Positions 4,539 through 29,034 of a DNA stretch of 32,000 bases are shown piece after piece. A program made the translations under genes and the position numbers. Each line of letters starts with the position of its first letter. The first letter of the stretch is position 1. Source of the stretch: Corynebacterium amycolatum (GTDB lineage Bacteria; Actinomycetota; Actinomycetes; Mycobacteriales; Mycobacteriaceae); NCBI RefSeq assembly GCF_049243625.1, contig NZ_CP046975.1, one strand, 5' to 3'. The notes under the pieces are model-generated. The model was not told the DNA's origin and made no database searches. It was given only the letters and a program-made list of their open reading frames with translations.

Positions 4539-4656
4539 TGCCGGCGGCGACCTACTCTCCCACACCCTCCCGAGTGCAGTACCATCGGCGCTGGTGGACT
4601 TAGCTTCCGGGTTCGGAATGGGACCGGGCGTGACCCCACCGCTAACACCACCGACA
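4539..4656 (-). rRNA. rrf: 5S rRNA (copy 1)
   Basis: The reverse complement reads TGTCGGTGGTGTTAGCGGTGGGGTCACGCCCGGTCCCATTCCGAACCCGGAAGCTAAGTCCACCAGCGCCGATGGTACTGCACTCGGGAGGGTGTGGGAGAGTAGGTCGCCGCCGGCA. Helix I closes between the two ends. Confidence 0.95.
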
Positions 4657-4760
4657 AAAACCAGGCAACAACCAACCCCACCACAAAACTTCGGGTGGGT
4701 GGTGTCATGCCAGACACTGAACAGTAGACGCGAGCAAAAACCCTAATTTTTCACACTCTC

Positions 4761-7856
<3,096 letters not shown>

Positions 7857-7938
7857 ATACTCAAGAACAATCACAAACAGAAAAACTGCTTGACAAAATC
7901 GAACTTACAGAAAAACAAGATGCTCGCGTCCACTATCC

Positions 7939-7952
7939 AGTTCTCACACAAC
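7939..7952 (-). promoter_or_regulatory. boxA-like antitermination element in the 16S-23S spacer (copy 1)
   Basis: The minus strand reads GTTGTGTGAGAACT. The same 14-mer recurs in the 16S leader (10120-10133). It resembles the mycobacterial leader/spacer boxA core TGTTGTTTGAGAACT, recalled from memory. Confidence 0.5.
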
Positions 7953-8232
7953 ACCCACACACCACAGAACAAACCACCACACAGCAGCCCGCCTGCAGCA
8001 CGCAGCAACCTGTACAACAGGAACAACAACACGTGTGTCATCCCAGACACCCAACAGCGCACCAACAACCAACCAACACAAAAAAGGAAAGCACCTTAAA
8101 CGTTTAATCATCACTTACACACGCGCAGACCACCATCACTTCAGCAGCCTGACCAGCAGGTGTTCCACCCAAAAAACAAAAAAGCCACACGCCACCAACA
8201 CGATGACACATGACACAAAGAAAAAATAATCT

Positions 8233-9758
<1,526 letters not shown>

Positions 9759-11435: not shown

Positions 11436-11553
11436 TGCCGGCGGCGACCTACTCTCCCACACCCTCCCGAGTGCAGTACCATCGGCGCTGGTGGACTTAG
11501 CTTCCGGGTTCGGAATGGGACCGGGCGTGACCCCACCGCTAACACCACCGACA
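11436..11553 (-). rRNA. rrf: 5S rRNA (copy 2)
   Basis: Identical to 4539-4656 (offset 6897). Confidence 0.95.
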
Positions 11554-11657
11554 AAAACCAGGCAACAACCAACCCCACCACAAAACTTCGGGTGGGTGGT
11601 GTCATGCCAGACACTGAACAGTAGACGCGAGCAAAAACCCTAATTTTTCACACTCTC

Positions 11658-14755
<3,098 letters not shown>

Positions 14756-14837
14756 ATACTCAAGAACAATCACAAACAGAAAAACTGCTTGACAAAATCG
14801 AACTTACAGAAAAACAAGATGCTCGCGTCCACTATCC

Positions 14838-14851
14838 AGTTCTCACACAAC
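14838..14851 (-). promoter_or_regulatory. boxA-like element in the 16S-23S spacer (copy 2)
   Basis: Same 14-mer as 7939-7952 (offset 6899). Confidence 0.5.
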
Positions 14852-15131
14852 ACCCACACACCACAGAACAAACCACCACACAGCAGCCCGCCTGCAGCAC
14901 GCAGCAACCTGTACAACAGGAACAACAACACGTGTGTCATCCCAGACACCCAACAGCGCACCAACAACCAACCAACACAAAAAAGGAAAGCACCTTAAAC
15001 GTTTAATCATCACTTACACACGCGCAGACCACCATCACTTCAGCAGCCTGACCAGCAGGTGTTCCACCCAAAAAACAAAAAAGCCACACGCCACCAACAC
15101 GATGACACATGACACAAAGAAAAAATAATCT

Positions 15132-16657
<1,526 letters not shown>

Positions 16658-17409: not shown

Positions 17410-18672
17410 CTAGCTAACCCGTTCAACAGAAGCGCCGAGAGCATTTAGCGTCTCTACGAAACCCGGGTAACCGCGATCAATGTGATAGACATCGTGCACC
17501 TCGGTGACATCCCCCTCTTCAGTACACAGACCAGCCAGCACCAGACCCGCACCAGCGCGAATGTCCGAAGACCACACAGGTGCCGAACTCAGCGTTTCCT
17601 TTCCGCGAATCATCACGTGGTGGCCATCGATAGTCGCGTCAGTACCGAGGCGAATCATCTCGTCGACAAACCGGAAGCGCGATTCAAAAACGTTCTCGGT
17701 AAGCACTGACGTTCCTTCAGACACCGCAGACAGAGCAATGGCCATGGGCTGCATGTCCGTCGGAAAGCCTGGGTATGGAAGCGTTTGATAGTTCACACCC
17801 TGCGGACGCCCGTCCATACGCACGCGGAAGCCCTGCGGATAGGTCTCGACCTGAGCGCCTGCATTCTTCAGTTTTTCCAGAGGAAGATGCAGGTACTTAG
17901 GGTTGATACCAACGACCGTAATATCGCCGCCGGTCATTGCCGCAGCATAGGCCCAGGTCCCTGCGATAATTCGGTCGCCGACGACCTTGTGCTCAGTCGG
18001 GTGCAGCTTCTCGACGCCCTCAACCATGATGGTGTTCGACCCCGCACCCGAGATCCTGGCTCCCATCTCCACGAGCATCTCGCACAGGTCGACAATTTCG
18101 GGCTCACGAGCGGCGTTATCCAGCACAGTCGTACCTTCAGCGAGTACGGCCGCGGTCAGAATATTCTCGGTCGCGCCGACGGACGGGAAGTCCAGCTTGA
18201 TGTTCGCACCTTCGAGCCGCCCCGCCTCAGCCACCACGCAACCGTGGTGAATATAGGTGCGTGCGCCCAATTTCTCCAGACCAGCCTGATGCATGTCCAG
18301 TGGGCGGGAACCAATTGCGTCACCACCGGGCAGTGCGACAATCGCATTACGGGTACGCGCCGTCAGCGGCCCGAGCACACAGACCGAAGCACGGAACTGG
18401 CGCACGGCGTCGAAGTCAGCGTGATGCGAGAGTTCTTCGGGCACCGTGATTTCAATCCGGTCACCCTCGCGCATCACGGAGCAGCCGAGCCCTTCGAGGA
18501 CCTTCTGCATCAATGGCACGTCGTCAATTTCAGGGCAGTTCGTCAGTACTGTCGTGCCCTCGGCCAGAAGCGCCGCACCCATCAGTTTCAGAACCGAGTT
18601 CTTCGCCCCGGAAATCTGAACCTGACCGTTTAGCGTCGCTCCGCCTTTAACCAGAAATCGCTCATTTCCCAC
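17410..18672 (-). CDS. murA: UDP-N-acetylglucosamine 1-carboxyvinyltransferase (MurA)
   Basis: Full-length MurA features are present ([46 protein letters not shown]). It lies directly upstream of an rrn operon, as in the mycobacterial murA-rrnA linkage. I prefer the GTG start at 18672, preceded by GGGGGA. The track ORF starts at ATG 18690. Confidence 0.9.
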
Positions 18673-18719
18673 TCCCCCAGCCAACCACATTTCGCAATAT
18701 CGCGCTTAGGCTTGAAACT

Positions 18720-19340
18720 ATGAGCGTTCATCTAACTCGCATTTACACTCGCACCGGCGACGACGGCACCACTGGATTATCCGATTTCAGCCGCGTTCCC
18801 AAGGATGATTCTCGCCTTATCGCCTACGCCACGTGCGAGGAGGCCAACGCCGCACTCGGTCAGGCGCGCAGTTTCGGCGCGCTTGACGACGAGGTGTCGG
18901 CTGTCATCCGCTACGTGCAGAATGATCTCTTTGATGCCGGAGCCGACCTGGCAACACCTATTGAAGAAAACCCGAAGTACCCGCCATTGCGTATCGAGCC
19001 GGATTACATCGAGCGACTCGAGCACTGGTGTGACCAGTTCAATGAGCAACTACCAAAACTGGATTCCTTCATCCTCCCTGGAGGCACACCAGCCGCGGCA
19101 CTGCTGCACACAGCTCGGGTGATTACTCGTCGGGCCGAGCGTGCGGCATGGGCTGCCTGCCGCGAGTTTCCCGAAACTACTTCAGTCCTACCGGCGAAGT
19201 ATCTCAATCGCCTGTCTGACCTGTTGTTTATTCTTTCGAGAGTGGCCAACGACGGCAACGACGTTAAATGGATTCCCGGTGGAGAGCGCGAAGATGAGCG
19301 CCAAACGGCCGTAGATGCGAAAGAGCGCCGCGTTCACTAG
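18720..19340 (+). CDS. pduO: PduO-type ATP:cob(I)alamin adenosyltransferase
   Basis: The N-terminal signature IYTRTGDDGTTGL is present, and the ORF has the length expected of the helical-bundle type. The context matches the corynebacterial murA-pduO-ramA arrangement as I recall it. Confidence 0.85.
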   Translation: MSVHLTRIYTRTGDDGTTGLSDFSRVPKDDSRLIAYATCEEANAALGQARSFGALDDEVSAVIRYVQNDLFDAGADLATPIEENPKYPPLRIEPDYIERLEHWCDQFNEQLPKLDSFILPGGTPAAALLHTARVITRRAERAAWAACREFPETTSVLPAKYLNRLSDLLFILSRVANDGNDVKWIPGGEREDERQTAVDAKERRVH

Positions 19341-19380: not shown

Positions 19381-20217
19381 TTACGGCAGTGCGCCGATAC
19401 GACGGGCTGCGTTGACAGCCTCGTAGCGAGTGTGGGCACCCAGCTTGCGCATTACGGAGCGGAGGTAGGACTTAACGGTCTCGGCACCGATGCCCATTTC
19501 CTCTGCGGCCTCGACGTTGGTGTGACCGAGGGCGACGCAGGCGAGAACATCGAGCTCACGAGCAGACAACTTGGTGGTCTGCTTAACGCGAACTGGGGTG
19601 ACCATCTGGTCGCAGAGCACCTCGAGCTCCTGGCGCAGCTTCTCATCATCCACGCGGTTAGCGAGCATGCGCAGCTTGGAGTGCGTGGAGCGAACCTGCT
19701 CCCATTCAGCGCCATTCATGATGCGACCGCCCTTACCGTTACCGGAGCGATCCATATTGCGACAGGCGTCGACGACAGCGAGGTCCTGCTCCAGGCAACG
19801 GGCGGTCATTGTGACCTCTTCAAGAACCTTGTCCCCCAGGCGCACCGAGGAGTGCACGCCACCGTAGAGCACGCCACGAACAAGACGCGAAACAATCACC
19901 GGCACGGCGACCAGCGAGTGCAGGCCTTCGTCACGAATCTTGTCGTCATACTCGTGGGTAATAACCTTGGCGCGCAGGTAGTCACTGACACCCACCGGGC
20001 GGCGCGTGGCCAACACGCGACCACCGACACCCGCACCCGATTCCACAGTCAGATTCTGCAGAGCCGGGGTACGCAGGCCAACCCAGTTGTTGATCTGCAT
20101 CTTAGAGTTATCGGTGACTTCCGCATACATTGTGACCGGAATACCAGTCGCATTCTTTAGGGCGACCAAGGACGACTTAATAACCTCATTGTCGTCCAGA
20201 ATGCGGTGGGGATCCAT
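19381..20217 (-). CDS. ramA: LuxR-family transcriptional regulator RamA (GAF-like N-terminal domain plus C-terminal HTH)
   Basis: C-terminal LuxR HTH (LSARELDVLACVALGHTNVEAAEEMGIGAETVKSYLRSVMRKLGAHTRYEAVNAARRIGALP). The N-terminal region (VGLRTPALQNL, GGRVLATRRPVGVSDY) matches what I remember of C. glutamicum RamA. The position between pduO and cysK also fits. Confidence 0.8.
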   Translation of the reverse strand: MDPHRILDDNEVIKSSLVALKNATGIPVTMYAEVTDNSKMQINNWVGLRTPALQNLTVESGAGVGGRVLATRRPVGVSDYLRAKVITHEYDDKIRDEGLHSLVAVPVIVSRLVRGVLYGGVHSSVRLGDKVLEEVTMTARCLEQDLAVVDACRNMDRSGNGKGGRIMNGAEWEQVRSTHSKLRMLANRVDDEKLRQELEVLCDQMVTPVRVKQTTKLSARELDVLACVALGHTNVEAAEEMGIGAETVKSYLRSVMRKLGAHTRYEAVNAARRIGALP

Positions 20218-20712
20218 CTCGCGTCCTCCTGCGTAACGGGCAAATTACTTCACTGGCACCCACAGAGGCACCATCAGCCTGTGACTTCGCGCCGACTTAC
20301 ACTCCTACGAAATGGCCAACTACCGCTCAGCGGCTACGGACCCTTTCGGGGGCTGTAAACCGTACAAAGTAGATAGTACCCTCCGAACGGGTACACCTGC
20401 ATTAAGGCATCCGTCACACAATCTTAGGAAACAACTAGGTTTCTCTACAAGTACGTAAAGAAAATACCAGGATAAATCCTGTCATTAGCCCCGCCTCGGC
20501 CGAATGGATACAAGGCAGGGGTAGCTATTTTTCCGCTAATAAACTGCGTGAATGTTGATAACAGAGGGTAATGAACGGCGTTTTACCCCCAATGCGGACA
20601 TTTTCGAAAAACACTGTCGCTGATTTACTTTGGTGCGCTATTGTCATTCATGCAACAGGTTTTGTTGAGTTCCACTTTCAATGCTACGTCCTCCACGTGG
20701 TTGTCCGAAGGT

Positions 20713-20940
20713 GGTGCACAGCAAACGCAAGAGGGAATCCGGTGCAATTCCGGAACTGTCCCGCAGCGGTAATCTGGAACAAAATTCGCCAACGGCACTG
20801 AGGTTATTTCAACCTTGGGAAGCGGCGAAAAGTAGGAAAATTGATAATAAGGTTCTGCACGTAAGCATCGAAGCAAGCGGCAGTCGTCATCCCCTTATTG
20901 TCGGTCACGCCAGGAAGTCCGAATACCTGCCTGATGCGCC
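20713..20940 (+). promoter_or_regulatory. Cobalamin (B12) riboswitch aptamer, orphan: no downstream same-strand gene
   Basis: P1 arms are GGTGCA (20713-20718) and TGCGCC (20935-20940). The core is GAGGGAATCCGGTGCAATTCCGGAACTGTCCCGCAGCGGTAA (20731-20772). GGCACTG (20794-20800) and GGGAAGCGGCG (20817-20827) follow. The B12 box is AGTCCGAATACCTGCC (20916-20931). Confidence 0.85.
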
Positions 20941-21058
20941 GAAGACACTGCAAAGTGCCACGGCCACGGAGATCGCCCGCGGACAGGTGTGACGTGAAAT
21001 GGAAGCGAAGAAATGCGACAGCTTCGCCTATATTTCTAGGCCTATCTTTATAGGCATT

Positions 21059-21090
21059 GCGCCCTACCCGCGGGCGTTTCTCTCATTTTT
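21059..21090 (+). terminator. Candidate intrinsic terminator downstream of the orphan riboswitch
   Basis: The stem is GCGCCC / GGGCGT (5 GC pairs plus one G-U) with a 7-nt loop, followed by TTTCTCTCATTTTT. A second, weaker hairpin is GCGAAG (21005-21010) / CTTCGC (21022-21027), followed by CTATATTTCT. Confidence 0.4.
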
Positions 21091-21143
21091 AGCGTGGTTT
21101 AGCTGCACATATCGATGAGCTATTCACCAACCAAACCGCTCGC

Positions 21144-21968
21144 CTAAACATCTTCTGGATGGAGCACATCTCGCCCAATCGCCTTGGAGACTACGGGCGC
21201 CCAAGGCAAAGCCAATCGAGCATGTTCGACCAACCGTCGATCCGCCAAAATTTCCTCTTTGGAGCCAACTCGCAGTTTGCCGTCGGCAAGCACTGCTGCC
21301 CGATCGGCGAAATTCCACGCGAAGTCGATATCGTGCGTGGCGACGACGACGGCTGTGCCCTGATCGCGCAATTGATCGAGCGTGTGTGCAAGCTTTCGGG
21401 TCGCCTGCGGATCGAGGCCGGCGGAGGGCTCGTCGAGAAGCAGGACGCGTGGGTGCATCGCCAGTGCGCCTGCGAGAGCGACGCGCTTGCGCTGACCATA
21501 GGAGAGCTGGTGCGGGACGCGTTCGGCGAGATCGGTGATTTCGGCGGTGCCTAGAGCCTCTCGGACGCGCCGCTCGACTTCCTCGTTCTCCAGCCCCAGG
21601 TTGACGGGACCGAAAGAGACATCTGCAAACACGCTAGCCGCGAAGATTTGCTCATCCGGATCCTGCGTGACCATCTGTACTGAGCGGCGAACCGTATTGC
21701 GGCCGTGCCGGGAGTACTTATAGGCGGTGCCATCAAGGCGAACCTCACCGCCATCGGGCTTAGACGCTCCCGCGAGCATACGCAACAGCGTGGATTTGCC
21801 AGAACCGTTTGCGCCCAATAGTGCTAGGCGCTCGCCACCCGAAATTGCCAGCTCCACGCCTTTCAGGACGTGGGTTTCGTCATAAGCGAATGTAACTGCG
21901 GCCGCTTCCACAATGGCGCCGCTGGCACCATCCACGCGATCAGCGCTATTTTTCCTACTGATCGACAT
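21144..21968 (-). CDS. cbiO: Cobalt ECF/ABC transporter ATPase CbiO
   Basis: Motifs: Walker A GANGSGKST, signature LSYGQRKRVALAGAL, Walker B LLLDEPSAGLD, H-loop VVATHDID. It is the last gene of a cbiM-N-Q-O array. I prefer the ATG start at 21968, 3 nt after the cbiQ stop. An alternative ATG at 21983 overlaps cbiQ. Confidence 0.9.
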   Translation of the reverse strand: MSISRKNSADRVDGASGAIVEAAAVTFAYDETHVLKGVELAISGGERLALLGANGSGKSTLLRMLAGASKPDGGEVRLDGTAYKYSRHGRNTVRRSVQMVTQDPDEQIFAASVFADVSFGPVNLGLENEEVERRVREALGTAEITDLAERVPHQLSYGQRKRVALAGALAMHPRVLLLDEPSAGLDPQATRKLAHTLDQLRDQGTAVVVATHDIDFAWNFADRAAVLADGKLRVGSKEEILADRRLVEHARLALPWAPVVSKAIGRDVLHPEDV

Positions 21969-21970
21969 CC

Positions 21971-22708
21971 CTATACACCCCATTTCAGCAGCGCCCAGGC
22001 CGCAATCAACGACAAAAGTAATGCACTGGATATCGCGAGGAACTTCGGCTGGCTCGGCCGCGAAATAACCAGTACTTTCATTGCGCTCGGATCGGCACGC
22101 AGCTCAATTCCTTCTTGCATCTTGCGGGCTCGAGCAAAAGCGATGACAAAGAGGCTGGCGGACTGCGCCGCGACATCACGAATCATCGCCCGGCGCGTGG
22201 AGTGCCCAAGACGTCGCGCTTGGGCTTCTGTCATTGAGTGCGCGGAGTGAATCAGCACGCCAGTCATCCGATAAATCACTTCAGCAAGGTACGTCAGGTA
22301 CCGAGGCATGCCACGTTTGTCGAGCCACGCAATGAGCTCCGAAATCGGAGTGGTCAGCGCAAAGACCATCGTGCAGCTGATACCCGCAAACGAACGCATC
22401 ACAACCTGCGCCATTCGCTGCGGGCCATCCGGCGACCACGCGAGACCGTCGGGAGTAAGCGCTACCAAAATCGGAAACGCGCCGACGAGCACAAAAACCG
22501 CCGGTGCCAGCACCATTGCCACATACAGCTTGCGGGGCACCCGGGCTATGTACGCAATAAACCAAGCAATGACCGCAATGACCGGCGCAAAGGGAATTGG
22601 CGGAAGCGCAACCGCCAGAATCAACAGCCCACCGAGCAGCAGGATCTTTTCGCCCACGTTACGGCGCGCCCAAGCGCTGCGCGCCGCTGCGGCTTCTAGC
22701 GCATTCAC
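21971..22708 (-). CDS. cbiQ: Cobalt transporter transmembrane component CbiQ (EcfT family)
   Basis: Polytopic membrane protein of the expected size. Its start overlaps the cbiN stop as ATGA (22705-22708). It lies between cbiN and cbiO. Confidence 0.85.
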   Translation of the reverse strand: MNALEAAAARSAWARRNVGEKILLLGGLLILAVALPPIPFAPVIAVIAWFIAYIARVPRKLYVAMVLAPAVFVLVGAFPILVALTPDGLAWSPDGPQRMAQVVMRSFAGISCTMVFALTTPISELIAWLDKRGMPRYLTYLAEVIYRMTGVLIHSAHSMTEAQARRLGHSTRRAMIRDVAAQSASLFVIAFARARKMQEGIELRADPSAMKVLVISRPSQPKFLAISSALLLSLIAAWALLKWGV

Positions 22709-23903: not shown

Positions 23904-23980
23904 GATGTAAATCTTCTTTCTGCGGCGCTATTCACCTCGACAGCACCGCTCGACCGCCAATCCGCGGACGCGAATTGGAT

Positions 23981-24227
23981 GATTTACAGTCGGTCTCCTG
24001 GCTAATGGGCTGAGGAAAGCTTCACACTTCTATTAATGCCTCGCCTCCTTCCCCAAAGGTTTGAGTCCCCCTGAGTGGCTTCGACGAAGCACCGCAATCA
24101 TCGGATCCATTGCCTGCGTTTTCGGTTATCGCATATAACCGCTGTGCAGATAACGGCCGCAATCGCGCCCAATCACAGTGGCGAGGGCCGCTGCCTATTT
24201 ACAAGGCATTCCCGTGCACCGTAAATC
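23981..24227 (-). promoter_or_regulatory. Cobalamin (B12) riboswitch controlling cbiMNQO
   Basis: On the minus strand, the P1 arms are GATTTAC (24227-24221) and GTAAATC (23987-23981). The core is ACGGGAATGCCTTGTAAATAGGCAGCGGCCCTCGCCACTGTGA (24215-24173). GCCACTCAG...GGGGAAGG follows (24079-24047). The B12 box is TAGCCAGGAGACCGAC (24004-23989). The aptamer ends 77 nt upstream of the cbiM ATG. Confidence 0.85.
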
Positions 24228-24436
24228 ACGTCTCAGAATAGTGGATTCTAAGGAACTTTACGGCTCTTTACCCTCACAATGGAGGTAAAGACGAGCAGGG
24301 CAATCACATAGCGTTAACGTGGTAAGAGCAGGAGCATTGCGAAATCAGCGGTGTGACTGCGACGGTGCCGGCCGCGGCGGCTGTGACGGTGGTAACACCG
24401 GAATTAACAGCCCCCTTCCCCACGCAATTCCCAAAA

Positions 24437-24539: not shown

Positions 24540-25472
24540 ATGACTATTTATAACGATGTCACTGAACTGATCGGCAACACCCCGCTGGTTAAGCTCAACC
24601 GTGTTACCGAGGGCCTGCCGGGCAACGTGATTGCCAAGCTGGAGTTTTACAACCCTGCCAACTCGGTCAAGGACCGCATCGGCAACGCAATTATCGATGC
24701 CGCCGAGCGCTCTGGCGAGCTCAATCCGGGCGGAACCATCGTCGAGGGTACCTCGGGCAACACCGGTATCGCGCTGGCAATGGTCGGCGCAGCCCGCGGT
24801 TACAAGGTCATTCTCACTATGCCGGACACCATGAGCCAGGAGCGCCGCGTCGTTCTGCGCGCATTCGGCGCTGAGCTTGTACTCACCCCGGGCGCAGATG
24901 GCATGCGCGGTGCTGTCGATAAGGCCAACGAAATCGTGGCTAACACCGACAATGCAATCCTGGCTTCCCAGTTCGCCAACCCGGCCAACCCGGCTATCCA
25001 CGAGGCAACCACTGGTGAAGAAATCTGGGAAGCTACCGACGGCAAGGTTGATTACTTCGTGGCTGGAGTCGGCACCGGCGGCACCATTACCGGTGCTGGT
25101 CGCACGCTGAAGAAGCACAACTCGGACATCAAGCTGGTGGCCGTTGAGCCGAAGGCCTCCCCACTGCTGACCGAGGGCACCGCCGGCCCGCACAAGATTC
25201 AGGGCCTGGGCGCAAACTTTATCCCAGAGGTTCTCGACCAGGAGCTTCTCGACGAGATTATTGCGGTTACCAACGAGGACGCTATTGAGGTCTCCCGCAA
25301 GGTTGCTGCAGCCGAGGGCATCCTCGGCGGCATTTCCGCCGGTGCAAACATCAAGGCTGCTCTCGAGATTGCAGCCCGCCCGGAGGCTGAGGGCAAGAAC
25401 ATCGTCGTGATTGTCCCTGACTTCGGCGAGCGCTACGTCTCCTCCATCCTGTACGAGGACCTGCGCGACTAA
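24540..25472 (+). CDS. cysK: O-acetylserine sulfhydrylase (cysteine synthase A)
   Basis: The PLP-lysine motif [11 protein letters not shown] and [11 protein letters not shown] are present, and the length is 310 aa. The equally long minus-strand ORF 24537-25478 is a shadow ORF. Confidence 0.95.
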
Positions 25473-27285: not shown

Positions 27286-27358
27286 TGGCCAGAAGCGGGA
27301 TCGAACCGCTGACCTTCCACTTTTCAGGCGGACGCTCTACCGACTGAGCTATCTGGCC
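27286..27358 (-). tRNA. tRNA-Phe (anticodon GAA)
   Basis: The reverse complement GGCCAGATAGCTCAGTCGGTAGAGCGTCCGCCTGAAAAGTGGAAGGTCAGCGGTTCGATCCCGCTTCTGGCCA folds as a cloverleaf with anticodon loop CTGAAAA. CCA is not encoded. Confidence 0.95.
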
Positions 27359-27377
27359 AGACTTGAAATTAATCAAG

Positions 27378-27454
27378 TGGCGACCCTGACGGGACTTGAA
27401 CCCGCGACCTCCGCCGTGACAGGGCGGCGCGCTAACCAACTGCGCCACAGGGCC
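27378..27454 (-). tRNA. tRNA-Asp (anticodon GTC), copy 1, CCA encoded
   Basis: The reverse complement is GGCCCTGTGGCGCAGTTGGTTAGCGCGCCGCCCTGTCACGGCGGAGGTCGCGGGTTCAAGTCCCGTCAGGGTCGCCA. The anticodon loop is CTGTCAC. Confidence 0.95.
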
Positions 27455-27703
27455 TTAAATGCTGTGCTCATCTTTCTGGATTACCAGCGCTGCGCACGAG
27501 TTGTTACTCTACAGAACAGCGCTAAACATAAGCAAATCGCCAGTTCATAGCAGATATTTTAAGTTGAAAACTGACATCTGGCCCCGGGGCTCGGGGCAAC
27601 CTAGACTGTGGCACCCCGGTGGCAGCGACGGGTTAACAGACAAAAGTATGTCCGCTCAGTATGTCGCCGGGTGGACGCTTTTTGCCACTTAGCTCTTAAT
27701 GCG

Positions 27704-27763
27704 AGTTACTGACTGCGTTTATGTCAAAAATGGCCCGAAAAATGGCCTGGAAGTGTCATAAAC
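27704..27763 (-). repeat. 60-nt conserved-arm / variable-core element, copy B
   Basis: The minus strand reads GTTTATGACACTT, then a 24-nt core, then TGACATAAAC-GC-AGTCAGTAACT. It matches 31440-31499 in 34 of the 36 arm positions, with an identical core length. The core here holds two AAAAATGGCC direct repeats (27726-27735 and 27738-27747 on the + strand). Confidence 0.7.
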
Positions 27764-27942
27764 TCGCACAGTTTCACATTTGCAGCCCACATTCGCTTGT
27801 GCAGCCCGCAATCTTTCGGACTGTCAGTTTTGCTACTTGACCCCGGGTTGTGGAGCTGCCGCAGTTGGGGGGGCAGTCACTATCTTGAGAATCAAACACA
27901 CTTTTTGCCCCCCCACACATACCGACGCCCAGCGCACCACTA

Positions 27943-27984
27943 ACCAAAAGCAAAAAACACCAGCTCCAACCGGAACTGGTGTTT
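27943..27984 (-). terminator. Intrinsic terminator after tRNA-Glu/tRNA-Asp copy 2
   Basis: The stem is AAACACCAG (27955-27963) / CTGGTGTTT (27976-27984). On the minus strand it is followed by TTTTTTGCTTTTGG. It starts 8 nt downstream of tRNA-Asp copy 2. Confidence 0.7.
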
Positions 27985-27991
27985 AGAATTG

Positions 27992-28065
27992 CGACCCTGA
28001 CGGGACTTGAACCCGCGACCTCCGCCGTGACAGGGCGGCGCGCTAACCAACTGCGCCACAGGGCC
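27992..28065 (-). tRNA. tRNA-Asp (anticodon GTC), copy 2, CCA not encoded
   Basis: The 75 nt at 27991-28065 are identical to 27380-27454. Confidence 0.95.
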
Positions 28066-28079
28066 ATCATGATTTTTAG

Positions 28080-28155
28080 TGGTACTCCCAACGGGATTCG
28101 AACCCGTGTTGCCGCCGTGAAAGGGCGGAGTCCTAGGCCTCTAGACGATGGGAGC
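28080..28155 (-). tRNA. tRNA-Glu (anticodon TTC), CCA encoded
   Basis: The reverse complement is GCTCCCATCGTCTAGAGGCCTAGGACTCCGCCCTTTCACGGCGGCAACACGGGTTCGAATCCCGTTGGGAGTACCA. The anticodon loop is CTTTCAC. Confidence 0.95.
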
Positions 28156-28355
28156 CCGACTTGACGCTGCAAAGAGCTGGCCACTCAATGACACATTCCG
28201 CGTACTTCTGCAGTGCATGAACACTGTATTTGCGCGCGCTCTTGGCAACGTAAAGAACTATAGAGGATAAGTACCCTTTTCCCAAAATCCACAGCTGAAC
28301 TGGAATTTCTTACTATTTACGAAAGCACTATTAGCGCTCCGATAAGCTCGTCACT

Positions 28356-28886
28356 ATGGCAACTCCGGATTTCATTGTTCAGCTCCGCGAAAAAATAGGC
28401 CACGCTCCGCTATGGCTCCCCGGTGTCACAGCTGTCGTCATTCGCGATGTTCCGCCGAATGCACCGATGTACGCCCTGCCTGAGGTATTGCTGGTTCGCC
28501 GCTCCGATAATGGGGAATGGACTCCAGTTACCGGAATCATCGACCCAAACGAGCAGCCTCACGACGCCGCCGTGCGGGAGGTAAAGGAAGAAACTGGACT
28601 CGATGTCACAGTCGAGGCCCTGCTCGGCACCGGCGCCGTCGGCCCTGTCGAATACCCCAATGGCGATGTCACCTCTTACGTGGATATCGCCATGCGCTGC
28701 AGTGTTGTTGGCGACGACGTCCCCCATGTCGCTGACGACGAATCGACCGAAGTCGGATGGTTTCAGATCTCACAGATGCCACCTATGAAGCCACGCTTCC
28801 GTCTAATAGTCGCCGATGCTGTCGCGCAGCTCAAGCACCCCGCGGGCTTCAAGCCGCGAATGGGTTACCACAAGCGGGAGAAGTAG
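28356..28886 (+). CDS. NUDIX hydrolase
   Basis: The Nudix box is present: GIIDPNEQPHDAAVREVKEETGLDV (G-x5-E-x7-REVxEExGL). Confidence 0.85.
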   Translation: MATPDFIVQLREKIGHAPLWLPGVTAVVIRDVPPNAPMYALPEVLLVRRSDNGEWTPVTGIIDPNEQPHDAAVREVKEETGLDVTVEALLGTGAVGPVEYPNGDVTSYVDIAMRCSVVGDDVPHVADDESTEVGWFQISQMPPMKPRFRLIVADAVAQLKHPAGFKPRMGYHKREK

Positions 28887-28920
28887 CTGCCGCGAAAGGG
28901 CAAAACAGGCAAGATACGAC

Positions 28921-28952
28921 AAAACCCCAGGTTACTAATGACCTGGGGTTTT
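28921..28952. terminator. Bidirectional intrinsic terminator shared by the NUDIX gene and tRNA-Lys
   Basis: AAAACCCCAGGT-tactaatg-ACCTGGGGTTTT forms a 10-bp stem with A and T tracts on either side. Confidence 0.8.
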
Positions 28953-28961
28953 GCGTGCTTG

Positions 28962-29034
28962 TGGGCCCTGCGGGGCTCGAACCCGCGACCTGCGGATTAA
29001 AAGTCCGTAGCTCTACCAACTGAGCTAAAGGCCC
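28962..29034 (-). tRNA. tRNA-Lys (anticodon TTT)
   Basis: The reverse complement is GGGCCTTTAGCTCAGTTGGTAGAGCTACGGACTTTTAATCCGCAGGTCGCGGGTTCGAGCCCCGCAGGGCCCA. The anticodon loop is CTTTTAA. Confidence 0.93.

Follow-up and report, generated by a model that had tools for sequence, protein, structure and literature searches.

Introduction

EutX and Rli55 each consist of a B12 riboswitch that gates a small RNA (sRNA) sequestering EutV, and SreA and SreB are S-adenosylmethionine riboswitches that act in trans. In the metE switch of Mycobacterium tuberculosis, which has no intrinsic terminator and turns translation off, an anti-anti-TIR hairpin formed in the ligand-bound state kisses aptamer loop L5 through its own loop, thereby freeing an anti-TIR strand that masks the translation initiation region (TIR) (PMC11260477). 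In the ubiG-mccBA S-box of Clostridium acetobutylicum (PMC2566862) and the cobalamin riboswitch antisense to pocR in Listeria (AspocR; summarised in PMC9943018), a riboswitch stands at the 3' end of its target, in convergent orientation. Here we describe a cobalamin riboswitch with no gene to control, located just past the 3' end of the cobalt-importer operon cbiMNQO in a 32,000-nt stretch of Corynebacterium amycolatum DNA (contig NZ_CP046975.1 of assembly GCF_049243625.1; hereafter 'the window'; positions are those of the whole window and refer to the + strand unless stated otherwise). Comparison with related genomes identifies the element as the leader of a lost metE gene and favours its retention by selection.

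The element resembles the M. tuberculosis metE switch in its RF00174-type aptamer, its large peripheral extension, its L5 CCC and its long expression platform. Orthologues of the element in Corynebacterium sp. NPDC060344 (xerosis group; L011), a relative (L012) and C. sputi (L014) precede metE with the TIR GACGAGGATCAAGGAG, and in C. sputi a complementary CCTCGTC upstream of the TIR fits, by eye, a TIR/anti-TIR design. The element differs from the M. tuberculosis switch in that the window lacks a regulated gene and a TIR, in that a kissing partner for L5 is a candidate only, and in that a U-tract is present in the C. amycolatum group. With the ubiG S-box and AspocR the element shares a position at a 3' end, convergent orientation and a ligand related to the function of the facing genes; however, those systems make a long antisense RNA without ligand, under a coherent logic, whereas here the logic would oppose that of the operon's 5' riboswitch, termination is likely in both predicted states and the layout stems from deletion of an intervening gene. 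With EutX/Rli55 and SreA/SreB it has in common a predicted promoter of its own, an aptamer, no open reading frame (ORF), a terminator-like end and B12 sensing that is apparently selected in the absence of a gene in cis, but, unlike them, it has no ligand-dependent pair of long and short isoforms evident from its structure; nor were ANTAR-type sites noticed in it, no search aimed at them having been made. No riboswitch-derived sRNA from Actinobacteria turned up in the literature searched.

Riboswitches without a gene are mostly written off as relics or annotation noise, or catalogued as antisense from orientation alone. Tables S2 and S3 of a 2023 survey of antisense riboswitches (PMC9943018) record, for C. 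amycolatum FDAARGOS_1108, a riboswitch at 1281441-1281698 (+) facing I6I65_05595 (1281894-1282718, -), an ABC cobalt-transport ATPase gene, across a gap of 195 nt, the same as in the window. The same tables give equivalent pairs for C. lactis RW2-5, C. aquilae and Corynebacterium sp. ATCC 6931, all as candidate antisense-acting riboswitches; these entries are uncharacterised, and the searched passages of the main text contain no mention of Corynebacterium, cbiO, metE or 'relic'. The locus is already recorded, and the claim of an earlier note on this DNA, made from the sequence by itself, that nothing equivalent had been described for Corynebacterium or a cbi operon does not hold against these tables. 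At this locus the history can be read directly: the same leader occurs with an intact metE, a decaying metE and no metE in related genomes.

Results

A full-length cobalamin riboswitch with no gene behind it

Eighty Corynebacterium loci with 10-kb flanks were fetched by means of the window's RamA protein (identical to RamA of C. amycolatum SK46), the window's proteins were mapped onto them, and Rfam scans were run on the informative ramA loci among the 80. The C. amycolatum complex comprises loci L001-L004 and metagenome contigs L081-L086; L005 is C. lactis, and L006 is Corynebacterium sp. H113. We use 'orphan' for a gene-less riboswitch copy; the orphan alignment consists of seven gene-less sequences and holds no metE-linked copies.

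The Rfam scan gives a match to RF00174, the cobalamin riboswitch, at 20678-20948 that spans the full model (positions 1-189 of 189) and scores 74.5 bits (gathering score 31.5; whole-window E = 8e-17). The core blocks, GGGAA..GGTGnnAnTCC, CTGTCCCGCAGCGGTAA, GCACTG..GGGAAG and the B12 box, are all there and are invariant in 7/7 orphan sequences. The earlier note had recognised an intact B12 aptamer from these blocks, and the score, well above threshold, bears it out; the strand was also right, but the aptamer starts ~35 nt before the 20713 given there and ends at 20948, not 20940. As drawn by Rfam, P1 of the orphan aptamer includes several non-canonical pairs. Its peripheral helices covary, and its core helices are invariant, hence uninformative. 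For the core we used the Rfam alignment, taking alifold helices only for the periphery and the platform; a thermodynamic fold of the core was rejected, because in it GGGA mis-pairs with L5 UCCC. The orphan aptamer is predicted to bind a corrinoid.

Between the aptamer end and the stop codon of the convergent cbiO gene lie 195 nt (203 nt in the earlier note) with no credible gene, as had been noted. The cbiMNQO operon is flanked by two B12 riboswitches: an ordinary one in its leader, also correctly predicted in the earlier note, and a second one past the cbiO stop, pointing back. The co-directional gene or conserved ORF that follows a canonical cis-riboswitch is absent downstream in the window and present in L011 and L012.

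It is most improbable that the element is the cis leader of a small-protein gene, for which the candidates would be a 39-codon ORF (Table 1), a 10-codon ORF at 21115-21147 or a GTG-initiated peptide after GGACAGG. These ORFs do exist, the ATG at 20999 has a weak AGG 11-13 nt before it, and translated upstream ORFs are known in mycobacterial metE leaders (PMC11260477). Yet AAATGG becomes AAATTC in C. lactis and AAAGCC in sp. H113; the GTG-initiated peptide varies in length among orphans (19, more than 40 and 5 codons); indel lengths are not divisible by three, and similarity shifts from one frame to another; and the 39-codon ORF, which the earlier note had rightly found implausible as a gene, crosses conserved helices and the terminator-like hairpin. 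A comparison of starts, lengths and frames found no ORF on either strand that is conserved across the orphans. A 103-aa ORF (+) and an 83-aa ORF (-) over the aptamer were set aside as not conserved and without Pfam match.

The element is the leader of a lost metE gene

The layout cysK - cbiMNQO - riboswitch - ramA, with no gene after the riboswitch, is found in L001-L006 and L081-L086. The distance from aptamer end to cbiO stop in the gene-less loci is roughly 170-215 nt, and the orthologous riboswitches score 58.8-70.9 bits in L001, L004, C. lactis and sp. H113. The comparison of the ramA-cbiO region across relatives that the earlier note had proposed does reveal a gene at this position: in L011 the equivalent riboswitch is followed by a metE of 781 aa whose stop is 7 nt away from that of cbiO, and in L012 a full-length metE lies behind the orthologous riboswitch. 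In C. sputi (L014, 7081-8689) the aptamer is the top-scoring one, at 103.7 bits, and the metE behind it is split over three frames and ends after ~394 codons. We refer to this cbiO-adjacent metE as metE-A and to the clade's second metE, located elsewhere, as metE-B; the C. sputi pseudogene is an intermediate stage of metE-A loss.

Nucleotide alignment of the leaders shows that the orphans and the metE-linked copies of L011, L012 and C. sputi, which occupy the matching ramA / cbiO-cysK neighbourhood, are orthologous well past the aptamer. Common to both are a TAnnnT hexamer, GCAACAGGT, the aptamer, GGCCAC..CGCCCGYGGACAGG, a hairpin with a GCGACA loop, and a downstream strand pairing back to CGCCCGYGG. 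The metE-bearing leaders then carry CTTGACGAGGATCAAGGAG(A/C)(T)CAC..ATG, that is, the metE ribosome-binding region, whose ribosome-binding site, TCAAGGAG, is degenerate in the orphans. The window's tail, 21091-21143, aligns weakly with CTTGACGAGGATCAAGGAG..ATG of L011, L012 and C. sputi and has lost the Shine-Dalgarno sequence; a degenerate echo of the ribosome-binding region, TAGCTGCACATATCGATG, lies at about 21100-21117. The tail is too diverged for the deletion breakpoint to be mapped, and TAGCTGCACATATCGATG resembles the ancestral AAGGAGCACACACCATG weakly. No residual metE coding sequence was found in the window or the other orphan loci by tblastn with L011 MetE as query.

On these alignments, the element is the complete metE-A leader, comprising promoter block, adenosylcobalamin-type aptamer and most of the expression platform; the metE-A coding sequence has been removed almost exactly, and metE-A, as its position in L011 indicates, once lay tail-to-tail with cbiO. 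The leader now faces cbiO because the metE-A coding sequence was removed. The window, L004 and C. lactis form a clade with 100% bootstrap, all members of which lack metE-A, and the gene was excised in the ancestor of C. amycolatum and C. lactis, probably including sp. H113.

Methionine synthesis is kept despite the loss. In C. amycolatum, both MetH and a cobamide-independent methionine synthase under riboswitch control are present (PMC11774034). The metE-B gene is ~54% identical to metE-A; on the C. lactis S064 contig it lies about 165 kb from the orphan, behind an RF00174 leader of 34.6 bits (38.6 and 39.7 bits on related contigs). With MetH and riboswitch-controlled metE-B kept in the clade, metE-A was redundant and its loss tolerable. 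Gene conversion or concerted evolution of the orphan from the metE-B riboswitch is excluded: within the S064 contig the orphan is 39% identical to the metE-B riboswitch, vs. 67% to the window orphan. In L092 (ULHE01000002.1 272427-280658), L087 and L091, metE-B has a divergent riboswitch with a short platform ending GATTGACGAGGAAATCACGAGATCATG and stands beside a Dyp-type peroxidase gene.

The gene-less leader is conserved where its surroundings are not

The earlier note had listed a relic of a lost B12-regulated gene among its possible readings. As to origin, this is what we find; that the element is only a relic, that is, a slowly decaying, functionless leader that looks conserved because metE was lost recently and independently or because a G+C-rich structure decays slowly, we consider unlikely. 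Loss of metE-A is recurrent in the genus, and the riboswitch repeatedly outlives its gene, as in the C. sputi pseudogene locus and in the orphan-like copies of C. mendelii (L031) and a Corynebacterium metagenome-assembled genome (L026). In the latter two (L026:8056-9159, L031:8336-9308), shortened RF00174 aptamers of 51 (L026) and 55.9 (L031) bits precede 820-920 nt that hold no credible ORF. (Two ORF translations past the L026 aptamer have the N-terminal 'SNLPD' in common, hinting at a repeat.) C. megadyptis (L024:9441-10001) has cysK-cbiMNQO-ramA and the cbiM-leader riboswitch, and no riboswitch in the 560-nt gap between cbiO and ramA; the orphan can therefore be lost entirely. The ambiguous placement of sp. 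H113, detailed below, also suits a relic.

The degree of divergence over which the leader has been kept argues otherwise. For L004, C. lactis and sp. H113, respectively, identity to the window is 51%, 42% and 37% at fourfold-degenerate sites; 57%, 33% and 35% in the spacer 20476-20636; 73%, 69% and 60% in the aptamer; 75%, 62% and 46% in the platform (20949-21084); and 24%, 34% and 30% in the tail 21085-21143, where the remains of the metE ribosome-binding site lie. Synonymous divergence from the window has essentially reached saturation in C. lactis and sp. H113, and identity is at random level for the tail in all three genomes and for the spacer in C. lactis and sp. H113. Over the same divergence the Rfam scores of the four deep orphan lineages stay at 58.8-74.5 bits, the platform helices are compensated, and the -10-like hexamer is kept too. 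Between deep lineages the orphan aptamer is 58-72% identical; for the functional cbiM riboswitch of these genomes, taken as a positive control, the figure is lower, at 37-60%.

The orphan consensus structure has 111 pairs, 28 of which changed on both sides, vs. 10.9 +/- 2.3 in shuffles (0/500 shuffles reached 28), and 93% of the cells assigned to pairs in the alignment are paired, vs. 38-47% with partners slid by 1-3 columns. The compensatory changes are located in the 5' arm, a P6-type hairpin, the peripheral extension, the switching hairpin and the platform helices. With the leader conserved while synonymous sites are saturated and the spacer, tail and former Shine-Dalgarno sequence randomised, 'only relic' is not supported. 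The amycolatum / L004 / lactis clade, all without metE-A, by itself spans 42-51% fourfold identity, and wherever sp. H113 is placed, comparing C. amycolatum with C. lactis already covers saturated synonymous divergence. The sequence comparison favours purifying selection on the leader, that is, retention rather than decay.

Predicted anatomy from promoter to 3' end

A TAnnnT hexamer stands 7-8 nt upstream of GCAACAGGT in every orphan and metE-linked orthologue (TATTGT, TATTCT, TATGCT, TATGGT, TAGAGT, TAACGT), and GCAACAGGT itself is kept in the orphans and in metE-bearing L011, L012 and C. sputi, within a spacer of random-level identity. In the two-part 5' arm that follows (Table 1), two-sided changes among the orphans affect 5/5 pairs of the outer helix and 3/7 of the inner helix. 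Just 3' of the B12 box, alifold helix 13 is 92% paired, its apical pairs covary, and the same sequence occurs in L012 and C. sputi. By eye, helix 13 cannot form together with a short candidate P1 (CGCA 20724-27 with UGCG 20934-37), and it would be the switching element.

The platform is closed by a long helix in which GGAGAUCGCCCGCGGACAGG pairs with CCUACCCGCGGGCGUUUCUCU (20968-87 : 21063-83). Every orphan retains this helix (sp. H113 with U-A in place of a C-G pair), and it recurs in metE-bearing L012 (GCCCGTGGAC/GTCCACGGGC) and in C. sputi, where its 3' strand overlaps CCUCGUC, which is complementary, by eye, to GACGAGG of the ribosome-binding region. The earlier note had described two hairpins followed by T-runs downstream of the aptamer. 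Both hairpins exist, but the first (21005-21027), in which C. lactis has a compensatory change from A-U to G-C and whose GCGACA is found also in L012, was rejected as a terminator, being an internal arm of the larger conserved platform domain. The second (21059-21077; -10.3 kcal/mol, z = -2.9), with the U-tract UUUCUCUCAUUUUU behind it, is terminator-like. Folding with the upstream strand blocked, as it would be once ligand is bound, yields this compact hairpin; folding without constraint yields the long closing helix and leaves CAUUUUU over. In these models both platform states look like terminators, ~55 nt before cbiO. By inspection only, a possible CCAC/GYGG hairpin offers GGA/GGG in its loop as a candidate kissing partner for the invariant L5 (UCCCG); the invariance of the L5 CCC makes a covariation test impossible. 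In the metagenome-assembled genome L003 of the amycolatum complex (L003:7098-7342), a tandem duplicate of CTCATTTTTAGC and an extra hairpin, GGCCACGTTTGGCC followed by AAGTTTTTCAT, lie between platform and cbiO, which suggests that the transcript is made and that read-through is disfavoured.

The 3' end bears on whether the element is a dedicated antisense riboswitch, which in low B12 would let transcription read through into cbiO (and cbiQNM), tuning the cobalt transporter by collision or duplex formation, and in high B12 would terminate. This too appears unlikely to us. The orientation is convergent, with the aptamer end 195 nt from the cbiO stop, and the arrangement is kept in L001-L006 and L081-L086; selection on the aptamer implies that B12 sensing matters; the two alternative platform folds could differ in termination efficiency; and there are precedents in the S-box of the ubiG operon (PMC2566862) and, as summarised in PMC9943018, the Listeria riboswitch antisense to pocR, the survey tables of the latter including this very locus. 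Against this, the logic would be incoherent, since low B12 turns the cbiM leader on while the antisense RNA would lower its output. Both predicted platform states end as a hairpin and U-rich tract before cbiO; the further terminator-like hairpin gained in L003 points to selection against read-through; and the 55-nt tail to cbiO is not conserved. Orientation, the sole positive argument for a dedicated antisense function, is an accident of the metE deletion. Finally, with ~11 µM constitutive cobamide in C. amycolatum (PMC9600381), the switch would be ligand-bound almost always. The terminator-like end and the regulatory logic speak for a non-coding RNA that is terminated rather than for a dedicated repressor acting in antisense.

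Discussion

The element is most likely, and on balance we think probably, a retained, terminated, B12-sensing non-coding RNA derived from the metE leader. By analogy with the M. tuberculosis metE switch, we propose the following scheme. Transcription would start at about 20650 and yield a B12-binding RNA of roughly 440 nt. In the ligand-free RNA the strand 3' of the B12 box would pair with CGGCCACGG, and the platform would close as 20968-87 : 21063-83. In the ligand-bound RNA the upstream platform strand would be captured in the candidate hairpin whose loop kisses L5, and the downstream strand would then fold as the local hairpin 21059-77 with its U-tract. In either state the transcript would end mostly near 21085-21092, ~55 nt before the cbiO stop, and B12 would alter the conformation of the RNA and possibly the fraction reading through into cbiO. 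The candidate effector sites are the most conserved exposed parts: the CCUCC loop (20690-20694), the GUGACGUGAAA element (20989-20999) and the GCGACAG loop (21016-21022).

A further step, which we put forward tentatively, is that the metE riboswitch was exapted after the gene deletion into a free-standing, trans-acting B12-sensing RNA kept across several Corynebacterium species. Possible targets of CCUCC, GUGACGUGAAA and GCGACAG would be the second metE, cobalamin genes or the 3' end of the cbiMNQO mRNA.

Several observations weigh against a retained, acting RNA. An E. coli-type sigma-70 scan finds no promoter at the orphan leader, the promoter being predicted from the conserved TAnnnT. Only the amycolatum group has the T5 run, and the U-rich tails are broken in L004, C. 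lactis and sp. H113. Within the window, the complements of the invariant GTGACGTGAAA and AAATGCGACAG are found in the element itself and nowhere else, which provides no trans target. The seven sequences used to test covariation are also those from which the structure was derived. The data hold four deep orphan lineages, and a metagenome scan with the platform motif for additional ones returned six contigs, every one of the amycolatum complex. In a three-protein neighbour-joining tree sp. H113 groups with the amycolatum clade at 61% bootstrap vs. 38.5% with the xerosis clade, and there may have been one or two metE-A deletion events. The orphan or orphaning copies in C. sputi, L026 and C. mendelii may simply be decaying, and it is clearly possible for a riboswitch to persist for some time without function.

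If the RNA is expressed, the locus would be a clean natural case of a cis-riboswitch becoming an independent B12-sensing RNA. If it also acts in trans, it may be the first riboswitch-derived sRNA in Actinobacteria and a dated example of the passage from cis-riboswitch to regulatory RNA. For catalogues of antisense riboswitches built on orientation, the locus means that they include deletion products in which convergence is accidental. C. amycolatum lives on human skin and makes cobamides constitutively, and a cob- mutant and cobalt-limitation assays are available for it.

Features and neighbourhood of the locus

Table 1. Features of the element and its neighbourhood, in window coordinates.
Feature	Position	Strand	Evidence
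murA	17410-18690	-	Pfam
PduO-type corrinoid adenosyltransferase	18720-19340	+	Pfam
ramA-like GAF/LuxR regulator (RamA type)	19381-20217	-	Pfam
-10-like hexamer TATTGT of the former metE promoter (putative)	20639-20644	+	conservation only
Leader start GCAACAGGT, small hairpin CAACA/TGTTG, probable transcription start region	20652-20667	+	conservation
Two-part 5' arm, helices 20675-79:20707-11 and 20683-89:20695-701, CCUCC loop 20690-20694	20675-20711	+	covariation
B12 box AGTCCGAATACCTGCC	20916-20931	+	within RF00174 match
Putative switching hairpin, CTGATGCGCCG just 3' of B12 box paired with CGGCCACGG	20931-20969	+	alifold helix 13
Expression-platform domain, ~115 nt, long closing helix GGAGATCGCCCGCGGACAGG with CCTACCCGCGGGCGTTTCTCT	20968-21083	+	minimum free energy -52.1 kcal/mol, z = -5.1
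Single-stranded GTGACGTGAAA (GUGACGUGAAA element)	20989-20999	+	invariant in 7/7 orphans
39-codon ORF, not a gene	20999-21118	+	ATG absent in L005/L006, frame broken by indels, no family match
Hairpin GCGAAG/CTTCGC, conserved GCGACA in loop (GCGACAG loop 21016-21022)	21005-21027	+	invariant in 7/7 orphans
Local G+C hairpin GCGCCC/GGGCGU (21059-21077), then U-rich TTTCTCTCATTTTT; terminator-like 3' end	21059-21090	+	terminator scan
cbiO, ABC ATPase of CbiMNQO cobalt importer, convergent on the orphan	21144-21983	-	Pfam ABC_tran
cbiQ, cbiN, cbiM, upstream of cbiO on its strand	up to 23903	-	Pfam
cbiM-leader cobalamin riboswitch, canonical	23971-24238	-	RF00174, 51.7 bits
cysK	24540-25472	+	Pfam

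The position of the cbiM-leader riboswitch is kept in L001, L004, C. lactis, sp. H113 and C. megadyptis. On the other side of the orphan, a ~100-nt block upstream of ramA (20355-20455, -) is almost invariant as far as C. lactis and partly so to sp. H113, the neighbouring spacer being randomised. The block contains the hairpin GTACCCTCCGAACGGGTAC (20376-20394) and is probably the ramA 5' untranslated region or promoter/operator, or a terminator for - strand transcripts from cbiO.

The region upstream of ramA has been remodelled more than once. In L011, between the metE riboswitch and ramA (L011:5218-10000), lie genes for methylmalonate-semialdehyde dehydrogenase-like, acyl-CoA dehydrogenase, 3-hydroxyisobutyrate dehydrogenase-like and enoyl-CoA hydratase proteins (translations judged by eye); the hydratase alone is kept in L012 and C. 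sputi, and none of the four is present in the amycolatum clade. In metagenome contig L083 (OJLZ01001893.1), cbiO and cbiQ are 99-100% identical to those of the window, ramA 92% and murA 75%, with a junction near the orphan riboswitch, which makes the contig a recombinant or an assembly chimera.

Two complete tandem rRNA operons (5S-23S-16S; 4539-9758 and 11436-16657, -), with near-identical Rfam matches, adjoin the murA-pduO-ramA block, and many public contigs of the locus stop 2-3 kb past ramA, presumably at the rRNA repeats. A cluster of five tRNA genes lies at 27286-29034. Among the fetched loci, the RamA of L002, titled C. vitaeruminis, is that of the window, and L032 (Staphylococcus chromogenes) and L057 (a Campylobacter metagenome-assembled genome) carry RamA proteins 74-78% identical to it; these three records are probably mislabelled or contaminated.

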